From assembly GCA_965116665.1 (NCBI GenBank), contig OZ220709.1, positions 3,051,486 to 3,115,485 on the forward strand: a stretch of 64,000 nt of DNA, given 5' to 3'. The DNA comes from Acidimicrobiales bacterium. GTDB lineage: Bacteria; Actinomycetota; Acidimicrobiia; Acidimicrobiales; Aldehydirespiratoraceae. The position numbers and the translations under genes were made by a program. Of the stretch, positions 5,100-57,158 are shown piece by piece (the stretch's first letter is position 1; every line of letters starts with the position of its first letter). Under the pieces are notes generated by a model that saw only the letters and a list, made by a program, of their open reading frames with translations, was not told the origin of the DNA and did no database searches.

Positions 5100-6035
5100 C
5101 TAGGCGCCGAGACGAGTGCAGTAGTCGACCATGCGCCGGCAGATGGAGGGCACCTCGCTGATGGCGTCGGTGTACTGCGACGGTTTCATGCAGAACAGCG
5201 TGTAGCCGGCCCCGACCTGACCATCGATCGCTGCCATGGCCTCGTCGACGTCGGCCACCGCGTCGGGCGAGGCGAATGTGGCCCGGGTGCCGCCCACTAG
5301 TTCGATCTCGGAGATGTCCCGCCCGACCGCGGCCAACCCTGCGGCCAGCTGGGCCAGATCCTCGGCCGTGGGGGCCCCGAAGGGGTGGAACCCGCTGCCG
5401 AAGCGGGCCATGCGGCGGATCAGAGCCGGGTGCATCCACTCGCCGCCGAACCACATGCGAGGACCCTCCGACCGCCAGGCCTTCGGCTCGCAGTACACGT
5501 CGGTGAAGCTGAAGTACCGGCCCTGGTAGCTGGCGGGCGAGCCCGCCCAGAGCCGCGACATGGCCTCCAGGTGCTCGTCGAGGATGCGGCCCCGCTCCGA
5601 GAAGGGCACACCGTGAGCCTCGTACTCGGCCCGCTGCCACGACACGGTGGGCTGCACCACCAGCCGGCCCTCGCACAGCAGGTCGATGGTGGCCAGGTCC
5701 TTGGCCAGCAGGATCGGATGCCGCAACGGCGCGATGATGGCGCCGGCCACCACCCGGACCCGGCTGGTGGCGGCGGCCACCGCGGCCAGGGTGGCGACCG
5801 AACTGGGCCACGGCGTCGTCGGATCCTGGTTCCCGATGGCCGCGTACATCCGGGGATTGCTCATCAGCCCACCGGTGGCGGCATCGGGGCCGAGCATCGT
5901 CTGTTCGCTGACCATCACTGCGTCGAAGCCGCTGTCCTCGGCGATCCGGGCCAGGTCGATCAGTCCCCGCATGTCGCGGGGGTCGAGCATGGTGTGGTTC
6001 TCGGTGAGGATCATCAACATTTGTGGCGGCGCCAT
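5100..6035 (-). CDS. Luciferase-like (LLM class) oxidoreductase, probably F420-dependent
   Basis: 311 aa with ILTENHTML, RVRVVAGAIIAPLRHPILLAKDLATIDLL and GRLVVQPTVSW. Close paralogue of the gene at 13589-14596. Confidence 0.8.
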   Translation of the reverse strand: MAPPQMLMILTENHTMLDPRDMRGLIDLARIAEDSGFDAVMVSEQTMLGPDAATGGLMSNPRMYAAIGNQDPTTPWPSSVATLAAVAAATSRVRVVAGAIIAPLRHPILLAKDLATIDLLCEGRLVVQPTVSWQRAEYEAHGVPFSERGRILDEHLEAMSRLWAGSPASYQGRYFSFTDVYCEPKAWRSEGPRMWFGGEWMHPALIRRMARFGSGFHPFGAPTAEDLAQLAAGLAAVGRDISEIELVGGTRATFASPDAVADVDEAMAAIDGQVGAGYTLFCMKPSQYTDAISEVPSICRRMVDYCTRLGA

Positions 6036-6917: not shown

Positions 6918-6947
6918 CTCGAATACAAACATATGTTCGTATTCGAG
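6918..6947. promoter_or_regulatory. 30-bp near-perfect palindrome upstream of the methylase (candidate operator)
   Basis: ctcgaatacaaacatatgttcgtattcgag: 14 of 15 symmetric pairs match. It ends 27 nt before the methylase ATG, in a locally AT-richer leader. Confidence 0.5.
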
Positions 6948-6973
6948 GTATCCCCCACACGGAGGGCGACGCG

Positions 6974-8638
6974 ATGCCAAACTGCAACCAAATGACGCTG
7001 ATCGACTGCGAGACAGGTTCACCGGCCGCCGTCATGGACGGGCTGTGCGACGAGCAGGACCTCGCGAGTATTGCTTGGTCGATCATCCGTGACGGCCAGC
7101 TTGCCGAGCTTTCAGAACCCGAGTGCGAACTCGTACAGGCCCTAGAGGTTCCCGGCCACGCTGCTCACGACAGCGGACTGATCGACCTGATCCGCTCGGG
7201 TCAGGACCCTCTGGGCGACGCTCTCATGCACTTGCGCCCACCCGACCAGCGCAGGCCGCTCGGCGCGACCTACACACCTTCCGAGATCGTTTCCTCGATC
7301 GTTACCTGGGTAGCGGCACGGTCAAGGCCAGCCCGCGTTATCGATCCTGGAACAGGCTCGGCCCGGTTCCTGCTGGAAGCTGGTCATGTGCTGCCGGAAG
7401 CCCTGCTGGTCGGGGTGGAGATCGACCCACTCGCCGCACTACTGGCCCGGGCCAACCTCACGGCGGCGGGTCTTGACCATCGGGCGCAGATCCTGGTGCG
7501 AGATTATCGCGACGCTGACTTTGGCGAGTTCAAGAGCACCACCGCCTACATCGGGAATCCGCCCTACGTCCGCCACCACCAGATCGAGCCGGAATGGAAG
7601 GAATGGTTGGCTGCAAGCTCGGCCTCCCTCGGGCTGAAGGCCAGCGGCCTCGCCGGGATGCACGTCCACTTCATGTTGGCCACGGCCCTGCATTCCCGGC
7701 CTGGCGACCTCGGCGCGTTCGTGACCTCGTCAGAGTGGCTCGACGTCAATTACGGCCACCTCCCGAGGATGCTGTTCGCGACCCGGCTAGGCGGAGTCTC
7801 GATCCACCTAGTTGATCCGCATGCCACACCCTTCGCCGACGCAGCAACCACTGCGGCCGTCACCTGCTTTGAGGTAGGCGAGCCTGGTGCGTCGATTCGC
7901 ATGGAGCGGGTCCCGAGCACGTCCGACCTGGGCGTGCTGGACGGCGGGCGGGCTTTCAGCCGACGACAGTTGCGCGCCGCGCCGAGATGGTCAGCGCTGC
8001 TCAACGGCTCCAAGAAGCCACCCGAAGGTTACGTAGAGCTGGGCGAGATCTGTCGTGTGCATCGTGGTGCAGTGACCGGCGCAAACTCCATATGGATCAC
8101 CGACGCTGACGACCCGGCCCTGCCACCGGATGTACTCCTTCCGTCGATCACTCGGGCAGCCGAACTCTTCAACGCTTCGGACGGTGTTCTGTCAAGCACA
8201 CATGGTCTACGGGCCGTGATCGCCCTACCAGCCGACCTCGAAATGTTCGACGAAGCTGACCGACTCCTCATCGACAGGTTCCTTCGGTCTGCCGAGCGAC
8301 GCGGGGTCCGCTCCGGCTACATCGCTCGCAATCGCAACCCCTGGTGGGCTGTGGGCCTTCGGACGCCTGCTCCCATCCTCGCGACCTACATGGCAAGGCG
8401 TCCGCCGGCGTTCGTCCGCAATCTCTCGACGGCCCGCAATGTGAACGTCGTTCACGGCATCTATCCACGCGAGGCCATGTCCGCTACTTCCCTCAATGCA
8501 CTGGCGGCAGCGCTGCGCGCCGCAGCCCCATCTGCGGTTGGACGAACCTACGCCGGCGGCCTCGTCAAGTTCGAGCCGTCCGAAATGGGCCGAATCCCTG
8601 TGCCAGAGCCCGCAGTGCTGGGAGAGATGGCGGCGTGA
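6974..8638 (+). CDS. Type II N6-adenine DNA methyltransferase (gamma class, Eco57I/TaqI-like architecture)
   Basis: 554 aa. Motif X GATYTPSEIV, motif I VIDPGTGSARFLLEA, motif IV GNPPYV, and a C-terminal specificity-type domain. ATG at 6974 is preceded by GGAGGG at 7-nt spacing. Confidence 0.85.
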   Translation: MPNCNQMTLIDCETGSPAAVMDGLCDEQDLASIAWSIIRDGQLAELSEPECELVQALEVPGHAAHDSGLIDLIRSGQDPLGDALMHLRPPDQRRPLGATYTPSEIVSSIVTWVAARSRPARVIDPGTGSARFLLEAGHVLPEALLVGVEIDPLAALLARANLTAAGLDHRAQILVRDYRDADFGEFKSTTAYIGNPPYVRHHQIEPEWKEWLAASSASLGLKASGLAGMHVHFMLATALHSRPGDLGAFVTSSEWLDVNYGHLPRMLFATRLGGVSIHLVDPHATPFADAATTAAVTCFEVGEPGASIRMERVPSTSDLGVLDGGRAFSRRQLRAAPRWSALLNGSKKPPEGYVELGEICRVHRGAVTGANSIWITDADDPALPPDVLLPSITRAAELFNASDGVLSSTHGLRAVIALPADLEMFDEADRLLIDRFLRSAERRGVRSGYIARNRNPWWAVGLRTPAPILATYMARRPPAFVRNLSTARNVNVVHGIYPREAMSATSLNALAAALRAAAPSAVGRTYAGGLVKFEPSEMGRIPVPEPAVLGEMAA

Positions 8639-13634: not shown

Positions 13635-14596
13635 GCTCGCCGCGGTGCGCCGGCGTCGAAGCTCGACATCCGGGACACGATGTGCTCGCACAGGGCCCGG
13701 ACCTCGGCCGGGTCGTCGGTGTGCTGGGACGGCTTGACGCAGAACGTGGTGAAGCCAGCCTCGATCTGGTCGCCGAAGTCGGCCATGGCCTCGTCGATGT
13801 CGGCGGTGTCGTCAGCGCCGGAGAACACCGCCCGGGTGCCGCCCACCATCTCGATTCTGTCCGGGTCGCGGCCCGCGGCGGCCAGCCCGGCCCGCAGCGC
13901 GTCCAGGTCCTCGGCGCTGGCCGGGCCGAACGGATGGAAGCCGTCCCCGTAGCGGACTAGTCGTCGCAGCAGGGCCGGGTGCATCGACTGGCCGCCGAAC
14001 CACATCCTGGGCCGGGCCGGTTCGGCCCGCCAGGGCTTGGGGACGCAGTACACGTCCTCGAACGCGAAGCGGGGTCCGGGATGCGACGCGGGCGTGTGCT
14101 TCCACAGCGCCGACATGGCTTCCAGCTGCTCGTCGAGGATGGCGCCCCGCTCTGCGAAGGGCACGCCGAGGGCGTCGTACTCCTCGCGGTGCCACGACAC
14201 GGTGGGCTGCACCACCAGCCGGCCCTCGCTGAGCCGGTCCAGGGTGGCCAGCTCCTTGGCCAGCAGCACCGGATGGCGCAGCGGGGCGATCACCGCGCCC
14301 ATCACCAGCCGCACCCGCCGGGTGGCCCCGGCCACCGCGGCCAGCAGCACATTGGAGCTGGGCCAGCGCGTGGCCGGATCCTGATTGCCGGGGGCCGCGT
14401 AGGCCCTGGGGTTGTCGGGCCGGCCGAGCGCGCCCGCGGACGGGCCGAGGACGATGTGCTCGCTGGCCATCACCGCGTCGAACCCGGCCGCCTCGGCGTC
14501 GGTGGCCAGGCGGACCAGCCCGACCAGGTCGTCGGGATCGACCAGCGTGTGGTTCTCGGTGAGGATCAGCAGCAGCCGGGGCCGCACCTCGATCAT
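13589..14596 (-). CDS. Luciferase-like (LLM class) oxidoreductase, paralogue of 5100-6035
   Basis: 335 aa, colinear with the other copy (ILTENHTLV, RVRLVMGAVIAPLRHPVLLAKELATLDRL, GRLVVQPTVSW). Confidence 0.8.
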   Translation of the reverse strand: MIEVRPRLLLILTENHTLVDPDDLVGLVRLATDAEAAGFDAVMASEHIVLGPSAGALGRPDNPRAYAAPGNQDPATRWPSSNVLLAAVAGATRRVRLVMGAVIAPLRHPVLLAKELATLDRLSEGRLVVQPTVSWHREEYDALGVPFAERGAILDEQLEAMSALWKHTPASHPGPRFAFEDVYCVPKPWRAEPARPRMWFGGQSMHPALLRRLVRYGDGFHPFGPASAEDLDALRAGLAAAGRDPDRIEMVGGTRAVFSGADDTADIDEAMADFGDQIEAGFTTFCVKPSQHTDDPAEVRALCEHIVSRMSSFDAGAPRRAYEGATSSRNQSTRA

Positions 14597-14683: not shown

Positions 14684-16654
14684 CTAGGCCGGATGGCTGG
14701 CGCGCCAGCCGCGAGCGGCAACGATCACCCCACCGATGACTGTGAGGAAGGCGCTGGCGCCGGGTGAGAGCGCCGGGGTCGCCAACCGGACGAAGGTGGC
14801 GACCCAGGCAACCCCGATCGCCGCAATGGCGCACCCCAGCCCGAACAGCACAACCGCGAGATAGCGCTGTGCACCGTGGCTGCGCACCAGTCGTCCGAGC
14901 GTCGCCGCCAGGGACGCCACCGTGAGGGCCAGGACCATGTAGCCGATCCTCGGACCCTCAGAGTCCAGGCCGCGCACCACCACGCGGCGGGTCTCGGCCA
15001 GGGCCTCGGCCAGCACCTCGGCGGCCAAGCCGCCCTGGTCGGCGCCCTCTGCCTCGGCCGCCAGCTCAGCGGCGATCTGAGCGGCGTCGCTGCGCTGGTC
15101 CAGGATCCAGGATCCCGACGCGCCGGCCAGTGCGAGGAACAGGGCCAGCACGACCATTCCCGCCAACTCCCGCGGCCCCGCCCGCGACGGCTCGTCGCCC
15201 CATCTCATTCGCCAGACCGCACCGGCGCCTCCACCAAGGACGATCAGCGCGCCGAGCAGAGCCAGCCACACCCCTGTGCCGTGGCTGTAGTCCCCGCCCC
15301 GGGGGGACACGGTCAGGTAGGCCGCCGCGAGCGACACCAGCACCAGCCCGGCCGCAAGGAAGGCGCCTCCGCCCGCGTAGAACCTGTCCCGGCTGCGCGG
15401 TCGCCACAGGGCCGAGGCGCCGCCGAACGCCACCGCCAGAGCGACGAGGCCGGCCACGATCCCGAACCATGAGCCGCCGGTTGCGTCCAGCCCGCTGTGG
15501 GCACCAGGAAGGTCGATGTCGTCGAATCGGGCGTAGGCCGACAACAGCCCGGCGTCGTTCCCCCAGGTCAGCAGCACCGAGAAGGCGGTGATCAGGCCGC
15601 CGACGAGCGCCGCCGCGGCCCCGATGCGGTGCGGGGCGGCCAGCTCGGGCGGCGCCGGCGCGGCCGGCACGACGGGAGTCTCCGGGTCGGCCTGCATGCC
15701 GGGCACGGCAGGCACCACAGGGTCGGACCGAGTGGTCCAGGCGCTGCGGATCCGCGCCGGCAGGCTGCGCCGGTCGTCGCTGTCCGCCGGCTGCGAGATC
15801 CGGTCGAGGAGCACCCCGACGAAGTAGAGGCCCGCGCCGGCCGAGGCGCCGATGGGGATGTCAGCTGTGTTCAGCGCGGTCAGGATCGGCTTGCCGAGTC
15901 CGCCGCCGGCGATGATCGCCACGATTCCCACCATCGACAGCGACAGCAGCAGGGTCTGGTTGAGTCCAGCCATGATCGCGGGCCGGGCCAGCGGCATCTG
16001 CACCTCGCGCAGGATCCGGGTCTCGGTCGCCCCGAAGGCCCGGGCCGCCTCGACGACATCGGCGGGGACCTGGCGGATCCCCAGGTTGGTCAGTCGCACG
16101 ATGGGAGGGAGCGCGAAGACCAGCGTGGCCAGCACGCCGGGGGTTCGGCGCACGCCGAACAGGAAGATGATGGGAAGCAGGTAGACGAAGGGGTGGATCA
16201 CCTGCATCCCGTCGAGGACGGGACGCAGCCGGCTCCAGAACGTGTCGACCCGAGCCGCCAGGATCCCGAGCGGGATGCCGATCACCGTGCAGACCAGCAC
16301 GGCAACGATGATCATCCCGAGCGTCTCCATGGTCAGGTCCCAGTACTCGTTCCCGAGCAGCCCGCAGATCAGGAGGCCGGCCGCGCTGCCCAGCCCCACC
16401 AGGAAATTCCTGGTCGCCAACCCGAGCAGGAAGAACAGCAGCAGCACGACCGGCCACGGCAGCCAGTCCTGAAGGAGGTTGTCGATGATGAGCTCCAACA
16501 GTTTGTCGACGGGCCACTTGACCGCGTCCAGGAATCCCTTGATGTGGGTGGTCAGCCAGAAGACGATCTCCTCTGTCCACAGACCGAGGGGGATCTCCCA
16601 CGCGTCGAGGTTGGAGTTGTCCCAGAACTCGGCGGCGAGCACGCTGGATCTCAC
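14684..16654 (-). CDS. proW: Glycine betaine/proline-type ABC permease (ProW/OpuAB) fused to a ~360-aa C-terminal polytopic domain of unknown function
   Basis: 655 aa. The first ~290 aa are ProW-like (GIPLGILAARVDTFWSRLRPVLDGMQVIHPFVYLLP, FGATETRILREVQMPLARPAIMAGLNQ). GTG at 16654 overlaps the proV stop (GTGA). Confidence 0.85.
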   Translation of the reverse strand: MRSSVLAAEFWDNSNLDAWEIPLGLWTEEIVFWLTTHIKGFLDAVKWPVDKLLELIIDNLLQDWLPWPVVLLLFFLLGLATRNFLVGLGSAAGLLICGLLGNEYWDLTMETLGMIIVAVLVCTVIGIPLGILAARVDTFWSRLRPVLDGMQVIHPFVYLLPIIFLFGVRRTPGVLATLVFALPPIVRLTNLGIRQVPADVVEAARAFGATETRILREVQMPLARPAIMAGLNQTLLLSLSMVGIVAIIAGGGLGKPILTALNTADIPIGASAGAGLYFVGVLLDRISQPADSDDRRSLPARIRSAWTTRSDPVVPAVPGMQADPETPVVPAAPAPPELAAPHRIGAAAALVGGLITAFSVLLTWGNDAGLLSAYARFDDIDLPGAHSGLDATGGSWFGIVAGLVALAVAFGGASALWRPRSRDRFYAGGGAFLAAGLVLVSLAAAYLTVSPRGGDYSHGTGVWLALLGALIVLGGGAGAVWRMRWGDEPSRAGPRELAGMVVLALFLALAGASGSWILDQRSDAAQIAAELAAEAEGADQGGLAAEVLAEALAETRRVVVRGLDSEGPRIGYMVLALTVASLAATLGRLVRSHGAQRYLAVVLFGLGCAIAAIGVAWVATFVRLATPALSPGASAFLTVIGGVIVAARGWRASHPA

Positions 16655-17886
16655 TGCCGAGCGTCCTCGGCCTTGGCCAGCTTGAGCTGCTCGGAGACGG
16701 CCTCGACGCGGCCCAGCTCGGCCAGGACCTCGAGGGGGCGTACCGATCCGATGAGCCTGCCCTCGGTGTCGACCACGGCGACCGGCAGGCCCGACCCGAA
16801 GAGCTGGTAGACCTTGGCCAGGATGGTGTCGTCGGTGACGACCGGCACCGCTTCGACGAGGGGTCCCAACTGCTGGTCGCCGCGCGCCCGGGCCCGCTCG
16901 GCGGACTCGCGGGTGACCACCCCGAGGGGTCGCCCACCGGAGTCCACCACATGGGCCGCCTCCGACCCGCGGCTGCCGATGGCGTCGAGGACGTCAGTGA
17001 CGGTCGCGCCGGCCGAGACCGTCGCAGCCTCGTCCCGCACCGTCTCGACGGCCAGCACCCGGCCCTGATCGACATCCTGGACGAACTCGGCCACATACTC
17101 GGTCTCCGGGCGCATGAGGATGTCTTCGGGCGTGCCGATCTGATGGATGGCGCCGTCCTTCATGATGCACACCCGGCTCCCGACCCGGAGCGCCTCGTTG
17201 AGATCGTGGGTGATGAAGAGGATCGTCTTGTGGAGCTTGTCCTGGATCTCCATCAGCTCGTCCTGCATCTGGCGCCGGATGAGAGGATCGAGGGCGCTGA
17301 AGGCCTCGTCCATGAGCAGGATGGCGGGATCGGTGGCGAGGGCGCGGGCCAGACCCACCCTCTGCTGCATGCCTCCGCTGAGCTGCCGCGGGTAGCTGTT
17401 CTCGTAGCCACTGAGTCCAACGAGCGCCAGCGCCCTCTCCGCGGCCTCGTCACGGGCCTCGGGGTCAACGCCCTTCACCCTCAGTCCGAAAGAGACGTTC
17501 GAGCGTATGTCCTGGTGGGGGAACAGCGCGAAGTGCTGGAACACCATGCCGGTGCTGTCACGGCGAAAGGCCTGGAGCTCCTTGGGATCGAGGGCGGTCA
17601 CGTCGGTTCCGTCGACGACGATCCTGCCCGCGGTGGGCTCGTAGAGCCGGTTCACGCAGCGGATGAGCGTGGACTTGCCCGAGCCGGACAGGCCCATCAC
17701 CACAAAGATCTCGCCCTCGGCCACGTCGATGTTGGCGTCGTTCACGCCGACGACATGACCGGTGCGCTCCTTGATCTCATCCTTCGAGCAGCCGGCCCGC
17801 AACAACGCTAGAGCCTCGCCGTCGGGCTCGTCGCCGAAGATCTTCACGACGTCTGCAATCTTGACCTTGGTCGGCATGAGCCCCAT
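16651..17886 (-). CDS. proV: Glycine betaine/proline-type ABC ATP-binding protein with C-terminal CBS pair (ProV/OpuAA)
   Basis: 411 aa with Walker A GLSGSGKST, LSGGMQQR and LLMDEAFSALD, plus a C-terminal CBS-like region. ATG 17877 (MPTKVKIADVVKIFG) is an alternative start. Confidence 0.9.
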   Translation of the reverse strand: MGLMPTKVKIADVVKIFGDEPDGEALALLRAGCSKDEIKERTGHVVGVNDANIDVAEGEIFVVMGLSGSGKSTLIRCVNRLYEPTAGRIVVDGTDVTALDPKELQAFRRDSTGMVFQHFALFPHQDIRSNVSFGLRVKGVDPEARDEAAERALALVGLSGYENSYPRQLSGGMQQRVGLARALATDPAILLMDEAFSALDPLIRRQMQDELMEIQDKLHKTILFITHDLNEALRVGSRVCIMKDGAIHQIGTPEDILMRPETEYVAEFVQDVDQGRVLAVETVRDEAATVSAGATVTDVLDAIGSRGSEAAHVVDSGGRPLGVVTRESAERARARGDQQLGPLVEAVPVVTDDTILAKVYQLFGSGLPVAVVDTEGRLIGSVRPLEVLAELGRVEAVSEQLKLAKAEDARQ

Positions 17887-17929
17887 TCCTAGGCCTGGGC
17901 CAGCCCCCGCGACTCTAGGGCAGGATGTT

Positions 17930-18346
17930 AGAGGCCGAGCGAATAGGCGAGCCTACTCGGCCCATACGGCGCGGGGCCGTGGCCCGAGCGGCCCGTGAGC
18001 GCAGCGAACAAGAGCGGGAATGACCACGCCGCGGCGCGAGGGGCTGGCACCCATTCACGGACGCTCTTAGAGGCCCCGCGGGTAGGCGAGCGAACCCGTT
18101 TCATACGGGGCGGGGCCGTGGCCCGAGCGGCCCGTGAGCGCAGCGAACAAGAGCGGGAATGACCACGCCGCGGCGCGAGGGGCTGGCACCCATTCACGGA
18201 CGCTCTTAGAGGCCCCGCGGGTAGGCGAGCGAACCCGTTTCATACGGGGCGGGGCCGTGGCCCGAGCGGCCCGTGAGCGCAGCGAACAAGAGCGGGAATG
18301 ACCACGCCGCGGCGCGAGGGGCTGGCACCCATTCACGGACGCTCTT
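17930..18346. repeat. 139-bp tandem repeat, three head-to-tail copies
   Basis: Copies at 17930-18068, 18069-18207 and 18208-18346. Copies 2 and 3 read identical. Copy 1 shares the 3' ~94 nt and diverges in its 5' 45 nt. Confidence 0.95.
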
Positions 18347-18447
18347 AGTCGGCCGAGAATGGCAGAGGCGAAATCGCTATTGCATCCCTGACCCGGCTGG
18401 GCTAGGAAGAACTGCGTGCACGCTCGACCAGGTAAGGAGACCACCGA

Positions 18448-19848
18448 ATGAGAACCGGCAGAGGGAGGGCGCTGGCCGCCGTCCTATTGACGTTCGCATT
18501 GCTGGCAGCCGCATGCGGCGACGACAGCGAACCAGCGACGACGGCACAGCCCGACGACGGCGCCGCCGCCGCCGCCCAAGCCGAGGCTGACGCCGCGCGG
18601 GCCGCCGCGGAGGAGGCGCAGGCCGCCGCGGCCGAAGCCGAGGCACAGCTGGCCGCAGCCGAAGCGGCCGCGGCCGAGGCCAGCGCAGAACAGCAGGCCG
18701 AGGCGCAGGCGGCGCTGGAGGCCGCCCAGGCAGAAGCCGCAGCCGCCCAGGCAGAGGCCGAGGCGGCGGAAGCCCAAGCGGCGTTGGCAGAAGCCGAAGC
18801 CGCCCAGGCAGAGGCCGAGGCGGCGGAAGCCCAAGCGGCGTTGGCAGAAGCCGAAGCGGAGGCCCAAGCGGCACCCGAACCTGAGATGGCGCTGCCCGGC
18901 GAGGGGGTGACCGTCACCATGGCGCGGGGCAACTGGAAGGAGACCAACTTCCAGAACTACGTCGTGCAGCTGCTCCTCGAGGAGCTCGGCTACGACGTCA
19001 CCGACCCCGAGGAGATCGCGCCGGCGACGTTCTACCCGGCCTTGGCCCAGGGCGACTACGACCTGTGGGCGTCGTCGTGGCCGCTCAACCACACTCCCCT
19101 GCTCGATGGCGAGAGCCCCGACGGCGGCACCTTCGGCGACAGGGTCCAGTACATCGGCACGATGATGGCGTCGGGTGCCCTGCAAGGCCTCCTAGTGGAC
19201 ATTCCCAGCGTGGAGCGGTTCGGCTTCACCACTCTCGGGGAGCTGCTCGACAACCCCGACGCGGTCGCCCACTTCGACACCGACGGCGACGGCAAGGCCG
19301 ACCTCAACGGCTGCGACGACGGCTGGGGCTGCCAGAAGGTGATGAACGACACGATCGCCCAGAACGGCTGGGACGATCGCATCGCGCAGGTGTCGGCCAC
19401 CCACTCGGCGCTGTTCGCCGAATCGCAGGCGAGCTTCGAGACGGGCGGCCCCGTCCTTCAGTACGTGTGGACGCCCACCGCCTTCGTGGGCAAGCTCGTG
19501 CCGGGACGAGACGTGCTGTGGCTCGCCATCGAGCCGGACCAGGCCATCGAGGGGCAGGCCGGCGTCTCGGCGGTGGGTGACGCCTGCACCAACGACCCGT
19601 GCACGACCATGTTCACCCCCTCGGACATAGTGGTGACCGCCAACAACGAGTTCCTGGCGGCCAACCCGGCGGCTGCGTCCCTGCTGGCCGACTTCGAGAT
19701 CGACCCGCTAGCGGTCGCCGTGCAGGCAGTGGCCATCGACGCGGGCGCCAACCCCAACGATGACATGGCCGCCGCGGCCGCCGAATGGATCGCGGCCAAC
19801 CGCGACCTGATCGACCCGTGGATCGAGGCTGCGCTCGCCGCTGGCTGA
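18448..19848 (+). CDS. proX: Glycine betaine-type ABC substrate-binding lipoprotein (ProX/OpuAC) with ~110-aa Ala/Glu/Gln linker
   Basis: AAGGAGA RBS. Lipobox LLAAAC-GDD, then an A/E/Q low-complexity stretch, then the binding domain (GVTVTMARGNWKETNFQNYVVQLLLEELGYDV). Confidence 0.85.
   Translation: MRTGRGRALAAVLLTFALLAAACGDDSEPATTAQPDDGAAAAAQAEADAARAAAEEAQAAAAEAEAQLAAAEAAAAEASAEQQAEAQAALEAAQAEAAAAQAEAEAAEAQAALAEAEAAQAEAEAAEAQAALAEAEAEAQAAPEPEMALPGEGVTVTMARGNWKETNFQNYVVQLLLEELGYDVTDPEEIAPATFYPALAQGDYDLWASSWPLNHTPLLDGESPDGGTFGDRVQYIGTMMASGALQGLLVDIPSVERFGFTTLGELLDNPDAVAHFDTDGDGKADLNGCDDGWGCQKVMNDTIAQNGWDDRIAQVSATHSALFAESQASFETGGPVLQYVWTPTAFVGKLVPGRDVLWLAIEPDQAIEGQAGVSAVGDACTNDPCTTMFTPSDIVVTANNEFLAANPAAASLLADFEIDPLAVAVQAVAIDAGANPNDDMAAAAAEWIAANRDLIDPWIEAALAAG
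18741..18854 (+). repeat. 57-bp in-frame tandem duplication inside the proX linker
   Basis: gccgcccaggcagaggccgaggcggcggaagcccaagcggcgttggcagaagccgaa occurs twice back to back and encodes AAQAEAEAAEAQAALAEAE twice. Confidence 0.9.
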
Positions 19849-19940: not shown

Positions 19941-21659
19941 GTGGCCAAGGCGGCGGTTGCCCCATCCCAGGATCGACTGCAGGCCGAGCTTGACCGGCGG
20001 CGGCCTCGCCTGCGTCCCCCGGCGGTGGTGATGCAGCCGGCGATGATGGGCGCGGCCCGCTTGACCCGCTACAGCTTCAGCCGCACGATGCTGCGCCGGG
20101 CGGCCCGAGGCCGGTGGCTCGCCCGGCGAACCCGTTTCGACATCGACAGCCGGGGTCACGGCGAGGCGGTGTACGAGATCGATGCCGGCGGCCACAAGCT
20201 CAGCTTCATCGCCTTCACAACAACCATCGACGAGTCCGAGCACACCGACCGCGTCATAGCCGAACGGTGGGAGGTCGCCGCGGCGCTCGTCGAGGGCGAG
20301 CCCAGCGGCGAGTTCCTCGACGAACTGCGGCGGGAGGTGCCGCTGCAGGAGGCGGGGCGGTTCGATCCCCGAGTCCTGGTGCTCACGCGGGGCAATCGCA
20401 GCGTGCGGTTCTTCGACTACCTCACCGACGTCCTCGCCGCAGGCGCACAGCCCGACCCTCATCTGGTGGCCGACGCCGGCTACATCCTGCGAAGCACGGC
20501 GTTCTACGCCAACGGCAAGTACGGGATGCGGTCCTTCGAGGGATACGGCGACAGCCATCCCCTCCGGGTCCCCTACCGGGCCCAGTTCGTGTGCGCGTGG
20601 CTGTTCCGGGAACTCGGCTACGACCTGGTGGAGCACTGCGCCCGCGCCAGGGGCGGAGACGCTGCGGCTCCCTTCGACGAGCGCTGGCGCCGGTACTTCG
20701 GACTGGGCAACGCCACCGGGCTGGGACTCGTGCCCTTCGCGTTCAAGCACCCGAGGGTGATCCACGCGTGGGTCTCAATCCGGGAGATGGCGCTGGCGGA
20801 CGTGCGGGCGCTGCCGGGCAGCCGCGACCGGATCGCACAACTCGACGCGTGGATCCAGCGGGCTCACGCACATTTCGTCCACGGAACAGACGACGACTGC
20901 CGGCCCTTCCTCAACTCCGTCGACGTGGCCGCGGTGGTTCTGCGAATCCGGGACGCGTTCGAACGCTGCCGCCGTGACCCGCTTCCGTTCGATGCCCTGT
21001 ACCGCTGGTCGGAGAGTCACAGCCCCGAGACCGCCGAACTGGTCGTGTCGCTGCTGCTGGAGCTGCACGACGGCGACGATGAGCTGATAGACGACCTGCT
21101 CACCGTCGACGAGCACAACCCGCTCGATCCCGCGGTGACCGTGGGGGACATGCGGACCATCCTGGCGTCGAGGTTCGAGTGGCTCGGCCACCTCGACCTC
21201 GACAACGAGGGGGCAGACGCATGGTGGTGGGTCATCAGCGACAACACCGAGGAGCCGCGCCGCGCCCTGCGGGACCGGCTCGAACCAGCCTGCCGCGATG
21301 TCGCCATCGACGTGGCGCTCCGCCTGTGGAGGCTGCGTGGCGCGATCGACGGCTACGACGACGCCACGCCGATCCATCGCGTCCTCAGCGAGCATCCCCA
21401 ACACCGCCTGGCGGCCGAGCGCCTAAGTGTCAGCGACTGTGCCTACGCCGAACCGCGCGACAATGCCTGCTCTGCGCACTACTTGCCGCTGCTGCTGCAA
21501 CGGTTCCAGCTAGCCATGTACGGCATGGACAACTTCAAGCCCAAGTCCACCGACTGGCTGAGGGTCACCCTGTTCCAGGGCGCGCCCCGCCTGGGAGACC
21601 TCGGGGTCGACACAGGCGATGACTGGGTGCTGCCAGCCCGCCCCGGGAGTTCCCAATGA
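19941..21659 (+). CDS. Conserved-looking hypothetical protein, 572 aa, no family recognised
   Basis: GTG at 19941 lies 9 nt after GGAGGAGG. The composition is a normal globular one, not the R/G/P-rich pattern of the spurious ORFs. The stop overlaps the next gene's ATG (ATGA at 21656-21659). Confidence 0.7.
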   Translation: MAKAAVAPSQDRLQAELDRRRPRLRPPAVVMQPAMMGAARLTRYSFSRTMLRRAARGRWLARRTRFDIDSRGHGEAVYEIDAGGHKLSFIAFTTTIDESEHTDRVIAERWEVAAALVEGEPSGEFLDELRREVPLQEAGRFDPRVLVLTRGNRSVRFFDYLTDVLAAGAQPDPHLVADAGYILRSTAFYANGKYGMRSFEGYGDSHPLRVPYRAQFVCAWLFRELGYDLVEHCARARGGDAAAPFDERWRRYFGLGNATGLGLVPFAFKHPRVIHAWVSIREMALADVRALPGSRDRIAQLDAWIQRAHAHFVHGTDDDCRPFLNSVDVAAVVLRIRDAFERCRRDPLPFDALYRWSESHSPETAELVVSLLLELHDGDDELIDDLLTVDEHNPLDPAVTVGDMRTILASRFEWLGHLDLDNEGADAWWWVISDNTEEPRRALRDRLEPACRDVAIDVALRLWRLRGAIDGYDDATPIHRVLSEHPQHRLAAERLSVSDCAYAEPRDNACSAHYLPLLLQRFQLAMYGMDNFKPKSTDWLRVTLFQGAPRLGDLGVDTGDDWVLPARPGSSQ

Positions 21660-22606
21660 TCATCGACGGTCTCCAGATCAACAGCTGGTCCCGCGCCGTC
21701 ATCGACGAGGTCAGATCGGGCGGGGTGGACATCGTCCACGCCACCGTGGGCGCGTGGGAGGACCTCGCCGGCGCCATGACCCGCATCGGTGCGTTCCGCC
21801 ATCTGTGCCGGCACAACGCTGATGCGATCCGGGTGGTCACCAACGTTGAGGAGATGCATCGTGCCGTCGCCGACAACGTTCTGGGCGCAGTGCTCGGTTT
21901 CCAGAACAGCACGATGCTCGGCGACGACCCCGAGATGGCCCAGATCTTCGCCGACGTGGGCGTGCGGGTAGTGCAGCTCACCTACAACATCGCCAACCAC
22001 ATGGGAGCCAGCTGCTGGGAGCCCAACGACGGCGGGCTCACCCGCGCCGGGCACAGAATGGTGGCCGCCCTGAACGATGCGGGAGTACTGATCGATCTCT
22101 CCCATGTCGGCAACTCCACGAGCCTCGATGCGGTGCACGCATCGTCAAAGCCCACGGCGATAACCCACGGCAACCCCCTGTGGTTCTGCGACTCGCCCCG
22201 CAACAAGCCCGACGAGGTGCTCAAGGCGGTCGCGAGCCGCGGCGGGGTGATCGGCTGCACCCTCTACCCGCTGTTCATGGGTGGCGCTGAAGTGAGCCGG
22301 AAGGACTACTGCACCATGATCGCCCGGCTCGCTGACCAGGTCGGCGTCGAGCATGTGGCCGTCGGCACCGACGCGGTGCTCGGGTGGGAGCCGGGTGCAC
22401 TGAGCTGGATGCGCGGCGGCCGCTGGGATCGCCCCGGGGAGTCCGGCAAGGAGCCGGTCTTCCCGGCGTGGCCCCCGTGGTTCCGCGGACCCAGGGACTT
22501 CGGCTCGCTCACCGAAGGCCTCGACGGCGCCGGGTTCTCACCCTCCGAGCGCGACTCCATCCTCGGCGGCAACTGGCTGCGCCTCTTCGGAATGGTGTTT
22601 GGGTGA
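21656..22606 (+). CDS. Membrane (renal) dipeptidase family protein, peptidase M19 / amidohydrolase fold
   Basis: 316 aa with IIDGLQIN, VVQLTYNIANHMG, VLIDLSHVGNST, GGVIGCTLYP and HVAVGTDAV. Confidence 0.85.
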   Translation: MIIDGLQINSWSRAVIDEVRSGGVDIVHATVGAWEDLAGAMTRIGAFRHLCRHNADAIRVVTNVEEMHRAVADNVLGAVLGFQNSTMLGDDPEMAQIFADVGVRVVQLTYNIANHMGASCWEPNDGGLTRAGHRMVAALNDAGVLIDLSHVGNSTSLDAVHASSKPTAITHGNPLWFCDSPRNKPDEVLKAVASRGGVIGCTLYPLFMGGAEVSRKDYCTMIARLADQVGVEHVAVGTDAVLGWEPGALSWMRGGRWDRPGESGKEPVFPAWPPWFRGPRDFGSLTEGLDGAGFSPSERDSILGGNWLRLFGMVFG

Positions 22607-22716
22607 CGGATCGCGGAGCCTGCGGCTGACATGGGCGCGACACGCTGGCCTCCGGCAACGAGCCCCTTCTCGGACTCGAGACGGATCGCGGAGCCCGCGG
22701 CTGACATGGGCGCGAC
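22605..22716 (+). repeat. Duplicated 37-bp translation-initiation segment, 75-bp period
   Basis: gacggatcgcggagcc[t/c]gcggctgacATGggcgcgac occurs at 22605-22641 and 22680-22716. The two ATGs (22631 and 22706) are in frame. Confidence 0.9.
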
Positions 22717-23266
22717 CCTCAGGGTGGCGCCGAGGGAGATCCACGATCTCGTCTACCGGGCCAGCCGCGTTGCCGGATGCGATCCGGGCACCGCCGAACG
22801 GATCGCCGAGAACGTCACGTTCGCGGAGATCCATCACGGTGACGCAGTGCGCGCCTTCTGCAAGGCCATCGGGGCGCTCGATCTCCCCGCGTCGGCGTGG
22901 GTTGCCGCGCCCGACGCGCTGCTGGAAGCCGAGATCGCGGCGCGCGCCGGCGGAAGCACGTCAGCCGCCTTCGGCACCGGCGTGCCCCTGGCGGCGATCG
23001 CGGCCACCCTTCGACAATCCCTCGAACGCGGCGTGGCCTTCGAGTTGGGGATCGACGGCCGGGCCCGAGGCGACACGACGGTCCGGGCCGTCGAAGTGCG
23101 CGCGGCCAGCTGCGAGGCTGAAACCGCGAGCCGGACGCGGACCGCCGGTGCCCGCAGCGACGCCCACAGGATCGGCTTGGAAGTCGATCAGCTCTGGTTC
23201 AGCAGGCTTGAAGCGGCCGCCGCCGGGTTCCTGGTTGCGGAGCCCACGCTCGACGAGATCGCCTAG
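22706..23266 (+). CDS. Hypothetical protein, 186 aa (211 aa if ATG 22631 is used)
   Basis: Protein-like composition (MGATLRVAPREIHDLVYRASRVAGCDPGTAERIAENVTFAEIHHG...). No family recognised. Confidence 0.6.
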   Translation: MGATLRVAPREIHDLVYRASRVAGCDPGTAERIAENVTFAEIHHGDAVRAFCKAIGALDLPASAWVAAPDALLEAEIAARAGGSTSAAFGTGVPLAAIAATLRQSLERGVAFELGIDGRARGDTTVRAVEVRAASCEAETASRTRTAGARSDAHRIGLEVDQLWFSRLEAAAAGFLVAEPTLDEIA

Positions 23267-24677: not shown

Positions 24678-24740
24678 GGAAGCTCCCCTGTTCGCCGTTC
24701 AGAGAACGTTCGGCCCCAAACAATAGTCCACGTCTCGCTG

Positions 24741-24850
24741 GCGGTCACCTGTTCCCGCTCTTGTTCGCTGCGCTCACGGGCCGCTCGGGCCACGGCCTCG
24801 CTCGGTGCCTCACGAGTTATCCGCACGTCACGGCTATCCGCTCGGCCTCA
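24741..24850. repeat. Solo inverted copy of the 139-bp repeat family
   Basis: Positions 24752-24797 are the exact reverse complement of the 46-nt core ggccgtggcccgagcggcccgtgagcgcagcgaacaagagcgggaa. The terminal ctatccgctcggcctca matches the copy-1 end and overlaps the stop codon of the acyl-CoA dehydrogenase gene. Confidence 0.85.
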
Positions 24851-48115: not shown

Positions 48116-48299
48116 GGCCGCTATTCGAGCCCACTAAAATAGCGAAGCCCGATTCAGCAAGTTATTTTAACAAATGCAAGATTGATAAAACAACGTCGCT
48201 GAAACGGGGCCGCTATTCGAGCCCACTAAAATAGCGAAGCCCGATTCAGCAAGTTATTTCAACAATGGCAGATTGCTGAAATAATATCGCTGAAACGAG
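48116..48299. repeat. 92-bp AT-rich tandem repeat, two copies
   Basis: Units begin at 48116 and 48208 (ggccgctattcgagcccactaaaatagcgaagcccgattcagcaagttattt...). The first 51 nt of each unit read identical and the rest is diverged. Positions 48161-48200 count 12/40 G+C. Confidence 0.9.
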
Positions 48300-53684: not shown

Positions 53685-53756
53685 GGCGGTGTTTCCGGTC
53701 CCCGACGCCAGGCACCGAACGAGCCTAGCCCGCGCCGGCTGTAGCGGTCGCGACAG

Positions 53757-54407
53757 TCAGCAGGCCGCGCCGGCTGTAGCGGTCGCGACAGTCAGCAGCC
53801 GGCGTAGCACGCCTGCGGTCGCCCCCCACACGGTGTCCCCCGGCAGTTCAAAGAACGTCATGGTGCGCTCGCCGCCGAATGCCTCGCCCAACGACCAGAC
53901 CTCCTCGCGCCAGGCCTCGGGGTCCGTCAGCTCGGACAGCGCGACGTGCAGCACCCGCTCGACCTCGGCCGGGTCGGGGACCAGCTCCGGGCGCCCCTCG
54001 ACGGTGGCCACGAACGGGCACACCAGCGAGCGGGATCCCACCGTGACGAAGCGGTCCAACCGCCCGACCTTCCGCACCGCGCCCGGGTCCAGCCCGATCT
54101 CCTCGGACGCCTCCCGAACCGCGGTGGCCCACAGATCGGCGTCGCCCGGCTCCCGCCTGCCACCGGGGAACGAGACCTCGCCGGCGTGGTGGCGCAGGTG
54201 CCAGGCCCGCCGGGTGAGAACCACCCACGGCTCGCCGCCGTGCTCATAGAGCAGCACCAGCACCCCCGACGGCGCCGATTCCGGCACCGCCGAGGCGGGA
54301 GACGGAAGGAGCGTGGAGGGAGCGGCCGAGACCGCCTGGACCACCCGTTCCAGGCTGGGTCGGCGACGATGCTCGGGAAGCTCTGCCCACGGAGCCGCTC
54401 CACCCAT
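53757..54407 (-). CDS. NUDIX hydrolase (CoA pyrophosphatase-like)
   Basis: Nudix box GGRREPGDADLWATAVREASEEIGL. ATG 54407 was chosen; the upstream part of the 287-aa ORF is G/R/P junk overlapping a better small ORF in another frame. Confidence 0.75.
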   Translation of the reverse strand: MGGAAPWAELPEHRRRPSLERVVQAVSAAPSTLLPSPASAVPESAPSGVLVLLYEHGGEPWVVLTRRAWHLRHHAGEVSFPGGRREPGDADLWATAVREASEEIGLDPGAVRKVGRLDRFVTVGSRSLVCPFVATVEGRPELVPDPAEVERVLHVALSELTDPEAWREEVWSLGEAFGGERTMTFFELPGDTVWGATAGVLRRLLTVATATAGAAC

Positions 54408-56973: not shown

Positions 56974-57158
56974 AGCCCTCCGGCAGGCTCAGGGACGGAT
57001 CGGCGCGTCTAGCCCTCCGGCAGGCTCAGGGACGGATCGGCGCGTCTAGCCCTCCGGCAGGCTCAGGGACGGATCGGCGCGTCTAGCTCTCCGGCAGGCT
57101 CAGGGACGGATCGGCGCGTCTAGCTCTCCGGCAGGCTCAGGGACGGATCGGCGCCCAC
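56974..57158. repeat. 37-bp tandem repeat, four full copies plus the copy that forms the tsaD 3' end
   Basis: Unit is agc[c/t]ctccggcaggctcagggacggatcggcgcgtct, with copies starting at 56974, 57011, 57048, 57085 and 57122. Each copy carries the tsaD C-terminal codons and the TAG stop. Confidence 0.95.

Follow-up and report, generated by a model that had tools for sequence, protein, structure and literature searches.

Three tandem copies of a probable IS5-type miniature element between divergent osmoprotectant importer genes of an Acidimicrobiales bacterium

Introduction

The genes for the ATPase (proV) and the substrate-binding protein (proX) of an osmoprotectant importer lie head-to-head in a 64,000-nt stretch of DNA, referred to below as the window, from an Acidimicrobiales bacterium assigned to Aldehydirespiratoraceae (assembly GCA_965116665.1, contig OZ220709.1, positions 3,051,486 to 3,115,485). 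Of the 561 nt between the two starts, 417-421 nt are taken up by a GC-rich 139-bp unit repeated three times head-to-tail, and the question raised by this locus is what such an array is and how it came to occupy a shared control region. A preliminary description, made from the letters alone, considered a tandem cis-regulatory RNA, a REP/MITE-like insertion (repetitive extragenic palindrome or miniature inverted-repeat transposable element) and a modulator of expression variable in copy number. The comparative analysis described here indicates that the array very probably consists of three copies of a non-autonomous 136-bp MITE, which carries the ends of an IS5-family insertion sequence (IS) of Acidimicrobiales and landed in the proV/proX control region. 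It belongs to a new MITE family of a well-known kind that was previously undescribed, and literature searches on Poriferisodalis, Aldehydirespirator and MITEs of Acidimicrobiia gave no description of this element.

Results

Organization of the array

Tandem Repeats Finder delimits the array at 17928-18348 with a period of 139, 3.0 copies, 96% matches and 0 indels. Direct comparison found 0 differences between units 2 and 3, while unit 1 departs from both by 11 mismatches, all of them confined to the 5′ 43 nt, so the arrangement of three head-to-tail units with identical second and third copies stands as first described; the portion shared by copy 1 extends over the 3′ 96 nt rather than about 94. 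The region initially delimited (17930-18346) also holds, with a slight shift of the natural phase, which starts with TTA at 17928. Each unit is composed of a 136-bp element (GAGGCC…GCTC) and a 3-bp TTA, and the whole array reads TTA-136 bp-TTA-136 bp-TTA-136 bp-TTA. Its G+C content is 72% per unit against 70% for the window. The nested inverted repeats reported earlier are indeed present: a repeat finder returned GGCCCCGC/GCGGGGCC and the palindrome CGCCGCGG(CG), and CCCGT-TTCAT-ACGGG and GGCCG-TGGCCCGAG-CGGCC are seen in the unit sequence. The parts of the array, its flanking target site duplication (TSD) and one more copy in the window are as follows.

17928..17930, plus strand: left TSD copy TTA (TAA on the proV-sense strand), defined by the empty site in locus L091
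17931..18066, plus strand: MITE copy 1, 136 bp, with the common 'GAGGCCGAGCG' type of 5′ arm (nhmmer E=6e-40)
18067..18069, plus strand: TTA spacer common to copies 1 and 2 (sequence, boundary table)
18070..18205, plus strand: MITE copy 2, 136 bp, with the 'GAGGCCCCGCGG' type of 5′ arm (comparison, nhmmer, boundary table)
18206..18208, plus strand: TTA spacer common to copies 2 and 3 (sequence, boundary table)
18209..18344, plus strand: MITE copy 3, same as copy 2 (0 differences)
18345..18347, plus strand: right TSD copy TTA (boundary table, empty site)
~24702..24849, minus strand: fourth, variant MITE copy (nhmmer match 24851-24746, E=2e-17, model positions 7-99; boundaries approximate)

The 5′ arm type of copy 2 recurs in L043, L048, L073, L075 and L076. 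The fourth copy matches the family over its 5′ two-thirds and has a diverged 3′ part; it adjoins a TGA stop codon, and TGA is found on both flanks if the element is taken to start with GGCCGAG. Two open reading frames (ORFs) called in the array, 17928-18197 and 18067-18444, both on the minus strand, have no counterpart at orthologous loci because the whole array is absent there, and they are artefacts, as was suspected from the outset.

A dispersed family with terminal repeats and target duplication

Exact matches to the 51-nt core of the unit were found in 89 stretches, all from metagenome-assembled genomes (MAGs) of Acidimicrobiia labelled Candidatus Aldehydirespirator, 'Acidimicrobiaceae bacterium SB06xx', 'Acidimicrobiia bacterium jk18xA/p16x…' or similarly. 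Nearly always the core is present there as a single copy; at least 27 of the 89 stretches belong to one MAG and 15 to one chromosome of 3.37 Mb. An nhmmer profile built from full-length copies detected 143 copies in the core-match loci together with the window. They are small and non-coding, typically 133-137 bp and over the full range 133-151 bp, with a period of 139 in the array that is not a multiple of 3. The typical copy starts with GAGGCCGAGCG[A/G]ATAGG and ends with …CCTAT[C/T][C/T]GCGCNC[G/C]CTC, forming an imperfect terminal inverted repeat of about 20 bp. Across 79 distinct copies the 21 terminal positions are 72.6% paired, and pairing falls to 34-44% on shifting one arm by 1-3 columns. 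Derivatives of 29-57 nt that have lost internal sequence still possess both ends and the TSD.

In a non-redundant set of 91 full copies, 29 are bordered by identical 3-nt flanks against 9.0 expected (permutation p<=5e-5), the duplicated trinucleotides being TTA, TAA, CTA, TCA, TGA and TAG. Direct repeats of 4 or 5 nt and reverse-complement flanks were both absent (0 among the 91 copies). The consensus of the target is C|TNA|G, with C at position -1 in 20/29 and G at +1 in 22/29 of these sites. According to rough gene calls, the copies occupy convergent (22), tandem (23) and divergent (14) intergenic regions, and gene 3′ ends abut the element about equally on either side (27 co-oriented vs 32 opposite). 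For about 30% of copies, a neighbouring gene has its stop codon within the duplicated TNA or at the junction, as might be expected if a TNA target is used and harmful insertions are selected against. In one locus of a sponge-associated Acidimicrobiia MAG, L012, several tRNA genes are directly adjoined by MITE copies; the same locus holds, at 6923-7022 and within an mttB-like gene, an Rfam match to PYLIS_3 (52.5 bits).

Empty orthologous sites

The nearest relative with data (L091/L092, GCA_022819505.1) encodes a ProV that is 96% identical and has the same divergent pair, separated by a 265-nt intergenic region devoid of the element. Its site reads …GCCGAC-TAG-CATCCTGCC…, and the same strand of the window reads …GCCGAC-TAA-[element-TAA]x3-CATCCTGCC…. 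Four further lineages with ProV 85-91% identical (L093-L102, L103, L104-106 and L107/108) also have no element at this place, and after removal of the array and one TAA the window aligns without gaps at the insertion point to all five empty-site lineages. Since the base following the left TAA is G of the element while the native site has C, the duplication comprises 3 bp and not 5.

An IS5-family insertion sequence with the same ends

The ends of the MITE are shared with an autonomous element recovered from other Acidimicrobiales and metagenomes. In L129 it measures 977 bp, is bounded by 21-bp terminal repeats with one mismatch and contains a single ORF of 294 aa, which matches NCBIfam NF033580 'IS5 family transposase' with 154.4 bits (cut-off 110) and Pfam DDE_Tnp_1 (3.3e-14) and DUF4096 (1.5e-11). 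Homologs of this transposase are numerous (64-96% identity), and all named ones are 'IS5 family transposase [Acidimicrobiales bacterium]'. Copies of the 977-bp IS are placed as follows.

L231, 1452-2428: 977-bp IS
L233, 577-1553: 977-bp IS
L129: 977-bp IS

All three have the ends GAGGCCG[A/C]GCGGATAGG and the flanks TTA/TTA, TAA/TAA or TTA/TAA; in L231 and L233 the ends are written in full as GAGGCCGCGCGGATAGG… and …CCTATCCGC[T/G]C[G/A]GGCTC, and the duplications are perfect in the C|TWA|G context (TTA/TTA in L231, TAA/TAA in L233). The MITE consensus agrees with the IS at 18/19 positions at one end and 16/17 at the other, without any match inside, and the 5′ 19 nt of copy 1 in the window match the right IS end at 18/19. 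This clear match to IS terminal sequence, which the preliminary description had named as an outcome that would speak against a regulatory RNA, joins the dispersed copies, the terminal inverted repeats, the 3-bp TSD and the empty site in bearing out its alternative suggestion of a REP/MITE-like insertion. Duplication of 3-bp TWA/TNA at a C|TNA|G target has been described for the IS5-related PHIS superfamily (PMC4482050).

A metagenome scan with the 5′ end (TAGAGGCCGAGCGRATAGG) gave at least 120 loci, L129 with its IS being one of them, and among the matches listed this end is found on several different interiors, namely the window family, an approximately 140-bp 'type B', a 'type C' and an L143-like form. 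In the window-family copies collected in this way the core is nearly invariant though it was not selected for. Type B is a second MITE family of about 140 bp with the same IS5-type ends and an unrelated interior (…GGGCACCGAACAGTACGGGATTTGCAGCG…CAGCTCGGCCTCC…), abundant in other metagenomes (L112, L114, L116, L120, L126, L131 and many more) and present as two head-to-tail copies in L131. The search for an autonomous IS in the first 0.9 Mb of loci, which looked for end pairs 400-3500 bp apart and for GAG…CTC inverted repeats with TSDs and used jackhmmer with E. coli IS5 InsH, returned none, and tblastn with the partner transposase against all collected sequence matched only the loci assembled on account of this transposase.

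Conserved internal module

Inside the element there is a module that is unrelated to the interior of the IS; in copy 2 it is located as follows.

18110..18165, plus strand: internal module of copy 2, composed of GGCCGTGGCCCGAGCGGCCCG, the 13-nt hairpin TGAGC-GCA-GCGAA and CAAGAGCGGGAA; it repeats at -139 and +139 in copies 1 and 3

The module, which can also be written GAGGCCGTGGCCCGAGCGGCCCG-hairpin-CAAGAGCGGGAA, recurs in sub-families with different filler, and its first half resembles the IS end with a 7-nt insert. The hairpin loop is always a GNA triloop, and the stem swaps tandem G.A pairs for Watson-Crick pairs between sub-families, the forms and their counts being these.

TGAGC-GCA-GCGAA: 122
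TGAGC-GAA-GCGAA: 5
TCGCC-GCA-GGCGA: 3
TCGCC-GAA-GGCGA: 1
CTCGCC-GAA-GGCGAG: 3

As type B elements do without the module, it is not needed for mobility. In one orthologous insertion the element is 98.5-100% identical between genomes that are 77-97% identical in its flanks; three orthologous sets were available, and the difference is suggestive and barely significant at most.

Adjacent copies and the proposed history of the array

Adjacent copies occur in 10 of the 91 loci with matches, most loci being single-copy, and three units is the largest array among the sampled loci. Most adjacent junctions share a single 3-bp spacer. The partners usually differ in sub-type or are mosaics (135+146 bp in L029, 136+150 bp in L081), and the adjacent pair of L002 combines identical 5′ halves with diverged 3′ halves, which points to separate insertions followed by partial gene conversion and not to simple duplication. 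Since insertion of a copy re-creates the half-sites …CTC-TNA-G and C-TNA-GAG…, the flanking TNA is again a good target.

In terms of mechanism, the transposase of the partner IS5-family element would be supplied in trans; its cuts at C|TNA|G are most likely staggered by 3 nt, so that TNA would be left duplicated on each side. The first insertion would have hit a TAA whose counterpart in the nearest relative is TAG, at a distance of 10 nt upstream of the hexamer TAGAGT, and a second copy with a different 5′ arm would then have entered the regenerated TTA beside it. Later gene conversion of the 3′ parts between copies 1 and 2 is suggested because the 3′ 96 nt are identical despite 5′ arms of two sub-families, and very recent unequal recombination between two units may have produced the identical copy 3. 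As to the lack of inverted neighbours, our best guess is selection against long near-perfect palindromes. IR-targeting of the IS30 type was considered as the source of head-to-tail pairs and set aside, the partner transposase being of the IS5 family.

Neighbouring genes and the split control region

The divergent proV/proX setting with its 561-nt spacer, deduced earlier from the reading frames, is confirmed by Pfam matches of the flanking ORFs; the surrounding features are listed below.

14684-16654: permease gene, preceding the ABC ATPase
16651..17886, minus strand: ProV/OpuAA-type ABC ATPase with CBS domains (Pfam ABC_tran 9.8e-34 plus CBS)
18370..18418, plus strand: control block kept in relatives (alignment of orthologous intergenic regions), a putative promoter/operator
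18448..19848, plus strand: divergent OpuAC-type substrate-binding protein (Pfam OpuAC 7.7e-32)

ProV, whose homologs are named glycine betaine/L-proline ABC transporter ATP-binding protein, starts at a distance of 41 nt from the array. Some 38 nt upstream of proV, relatives show partial conservation of the hexamer TAGNGT; in the window it is TAGAGT at 17912-17917 and may represent the proV -10 element. On the other side, relatives keep a block containing GCAATAGCGAT[A/T]TC and, within it, the palindrome GCGATATCGC, which is replaced in the window by the near-palindrome GCGAAATCGC. The 3′ part of this block contains, on the proX strand, TTGCAT-17 nt-TAGGAA in the window and TAAGAA in relatives, and the proX-side motif at 18390-18418 is intact, 43 nt to the right of the array. 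The location of the array thus corresponds to the place where the -35 element or the spacer of proV would be expected, and most likely about 417 bp of GC-rich DNA now part the putative proV core promoter from the conserved upstream block. A simple scan of 17800-18500 for sigma-70 promoter and terminator consensus found no sites, a result that says little for an actinobacterial genome of 70% GC.

Several lineage-specific features of the same neighbourhood were noted. The OpuAC protein possesses a repetitive Ala/Glu/Gln-rich N-terminal linker (window 18600-18860, a 57-nt unit x2.3, 98% identical), and its length is 466 aa in the window, 463-464 aa in L104/L107 and 375-387 aa in L091/L093/L103. 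In L091, L093 and L103 about 110 nt of extra leader separate the promoter-like motif from the start of the binding protein, and this leader, which is missing from the window (18419-18447), L104 and L107, may be a lineage-specific 5′ leader element. Three extra genes, a 572-aa ORF without a Pfam match, an M19 dipeptidase and a 186-aa ORF, are found at 19941-22606 of the window between the binding-protein and Gln-synt_C genes, which are adjacent in L091/L093.

Other repeats in the window

Apart from the MITE, the window contains an unrelated tandem repeat at 56974-57154 (37-nt unit AGCCCTCCGGCAGGCTCAGGGACGGATCGGCGCGTCT, x4.9, 99% identity) and, at 48116-48270, a stretch that is AT-rich in a 70% GC genome and holds a 63-nt repeat x2, 92 nt apart (GGCCGCTATTCGAGCCCACTAAAATAGCGAAGCCCGATTCAGCAAGTTATTT…); it is situated where two genes apparently start in divergent directions, and may represent an operator or promoter region that has been duplicated. 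Short direct repeats were detected at 53730-53798 (35 nt x2 at 100% identity) and 22605-22723 (44 nt x2 at 75-nt spacing). The luciferase-like monooxygenase genes at 5229-6033 and 13778-14588, 8.55 kb apart, are 73-82% identical in DNA and are thus paralogs.

Discussion

The mobility of the family is evident from its dispersal together with the empty site, and there is little doubt in our minds that the array is made of MITE copies with IS5-family ends. Several observations nevertheless weigh against this interpretation. Perfect TSDs border only about a third of the copies. The 3′ ends of the window copies are degenerate (11/17 identical to the IS end), and these copies may no longer be mobile. 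Neither the IS nor its transposase was found in the window or in 0.67 Mb of sampled sponge-MAG loci. All 11 adjacent junctions are head-to-tail, an outcome not expected if copies inserted at random into a palindromic target. Unusually for a MITE, conservation is higher in the interior than in the arms, the module being at least 90% conserved also among copies that were not chosen by means of it. Finally, the copy number of three comes from a single assembly.

The last of these points bears on the possibility that the three copies are an assembly artefact or a trivial local duplication and that in truth there are one or two. Unit 3 is an exact match of unit 2, no other sampled locus carries as many, and one assembly of the strain spans the array while a second contig of the same strain ends inside it; in the search for array-length polymorphism, a metagenome scan with the right-junction sequence gave no match, and no record of the exact ProV protein was found. 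Against this, copies 1 and 2 differ at 11 positions, which makes at least two copies real, head-to-tail pairs occur in nine other loci and the source contig is apparently a multi-megabase long-read assembly, so that we regard this explanation as quite improbable. A minisatellite or variable number tandem repeat (MIRU-like) was rejected on the grounds that adjacent copies are so rare and most loci have one copy. In favour of a structured RNA dedicated to cis-regulation of the proV/proX transporter, be it a tandem riboswitch or a leader, one may cite the location between transporter genes, the GC-rich nested inverted repeats and the tandem units, as in some riboswitches. This suggestion of the preliminary description does not survive comparison: L091, L093, L103, L104/105 and L107 have no element between their ProV and OpuAC genes, and more than 100 copies stand beside unrelated genes, in all contexts and in both orientations. 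At gathering score, Rfam gave no matches to the copies in the window or in 17 loci, and at E<=10 nothing overlapped any copy (window, array, consensus-type copy, 17 loci). Single units fold no better than shuffled sequences on both strands (z = -0.12 and -0.95). RNAalifold yielded local pairs that are all invariant, the covariation term being -0.22; a four-helix model showed complementarity but little covariation, and two-sided changes in the terminal helix are concentrated in a single pair (columns 13/133). The terminal-stem mismatches (A.C 148 vs G.T 111) lack the strand-specific wobble signature of a transcribed strand. A regulatory RNA of this kind is accordingly highly improbable. The terminal sequence GGCCGAGCGGATAGGCG of MITE and IS (for example, window 17931-17950) resembles the D-arm region of class II tRNA (…GGCCGAGCGGU..AAGGCG…); Rfam and a tRNA model gave no match, and the likeness is probably a coincidence.

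That the unit might be a palindromic element of the REP/REPIN type, disseminated by a RAYT (Y1 tyrosine) transposase, is in turn hardly credible. Such elements are likewise GC-rich, hairpin-forming, intergenic and multi-copy and often stand beside gene 3′ ends, but their insertion involves no target duplication and depends on the Y1 (RAYT) transposase, while the present element has a 3-bp TSD, an empty site exhibiting it and termini of an IS with a DDE transposase; RAYT genes were not searched for. More attention is deserved by the proposal that the MITE was co-opted, with the module, that is two GGCC-rich blocks and a GNA-triloop hairpin, functional as DNA or RNA, for example as a host-factor site or a small structured RNA, and the three-copy array tuning expression of the osmoprotectant importer. 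In a fuller form the module would be functional cargo (a structured single-stranded DNA or RNA motif, a host-factor site or a second transposase-binding site) spread on an IS5-type MITE chassis, and orientation-specific self-targeting would build head-to-tail arrays that alter nearby expression. The constancy of the module beside variable arms, its origin outside the IS, its recurrence with different filler, the switching of the hairpin between tandem G.A and Watson-Crick pairs with the GNA loop kept, the higher identity of one orthologous insertion than of its flanks and the position of the array within the putative proV promoter spacer are all in line with it. The lack of orientation bias to neighbouring genes, the occurrence in all intergenic contexts, the soil type B elements with the same ends and no module, the restriction of the ortholog comparison to three loci and the absence of promoter or terminator motifs in the consensus scan speak against it, and both forms of the proposal seem to us unlikely, albeit worth keeping in mind.

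Taken as a MITE, the element can be compared with several known systems. With the 977-bp IS it shares the terminal 17-19 nt, the 3-bp TTA/TAA duplication and the C|TNA|G context, and it differs from it in having no transposase gene, a length of 136 bp and an unrelated interior. Prokaryotic MITEs such as Correia/NEMIS of Neisseria, RUP of pneumococcus, MITEAba12 and BrickBuilt, the biology of which, including promoter effects and insertion of copies into one another, has been reviewed (PMC10969869), are similarly small, non-coding, multi-copy and mostly intergenic, with terminal inverted repeats and a TSD, and can insert beside other copies, inside them and in promoter regions. The Acidimicrobiia element is distinguished by its sequence, host clade, 3-bp TNA duplication, conserved internal module and strictly head-to-tail pairs. 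Eukaryotic Tourist-type MITEs and PIF/Harbinger/Nuwa of the IS5-related PHIS superfamily (PMC4482050) have in common with it the 3-bp TWA/TNA duplication, the C|TNA|G preference and a DDE transposase of the IS5-related clade; here the host is bacterial, the partner IS has no Myb-like second ORF and the sequences are unrelated. REP, BIME and REPIN are comparable as GC-rich palindromic intergenic repeats frequent at gene 3′ ends, and differ in the TSD and in the DDE-transposase IS ends found here. Tandem riboswitches and structured leaders of transporter operons also consist of tandem GC-rich structured units upstream of transporter genes, whereas this element is not conserved at orthologous loci, has neither an Rfam match nor significant folding or covariation, and is dispersed beside unrelated genes.

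The current understanding of MITEs is unchanged by this finding, and the internal hairpin module is the sole feature that could prove more than ordinary. What is added is a MITE family that abounds in uncultured Acidimicrobiia, sponge-associated MAGs among them, together with its IS5-family partner; the C|TNA|G target of this family often coincides with stop codons. For annotation it matters that assemblies break at these repeats, as exemplified by the second contig of this strain. Only in one lineage is the control region common to the two osmoprotectant importer genes split by the insertion, and this offers a natural test of the effect that a MITE array may have on transporter expression.

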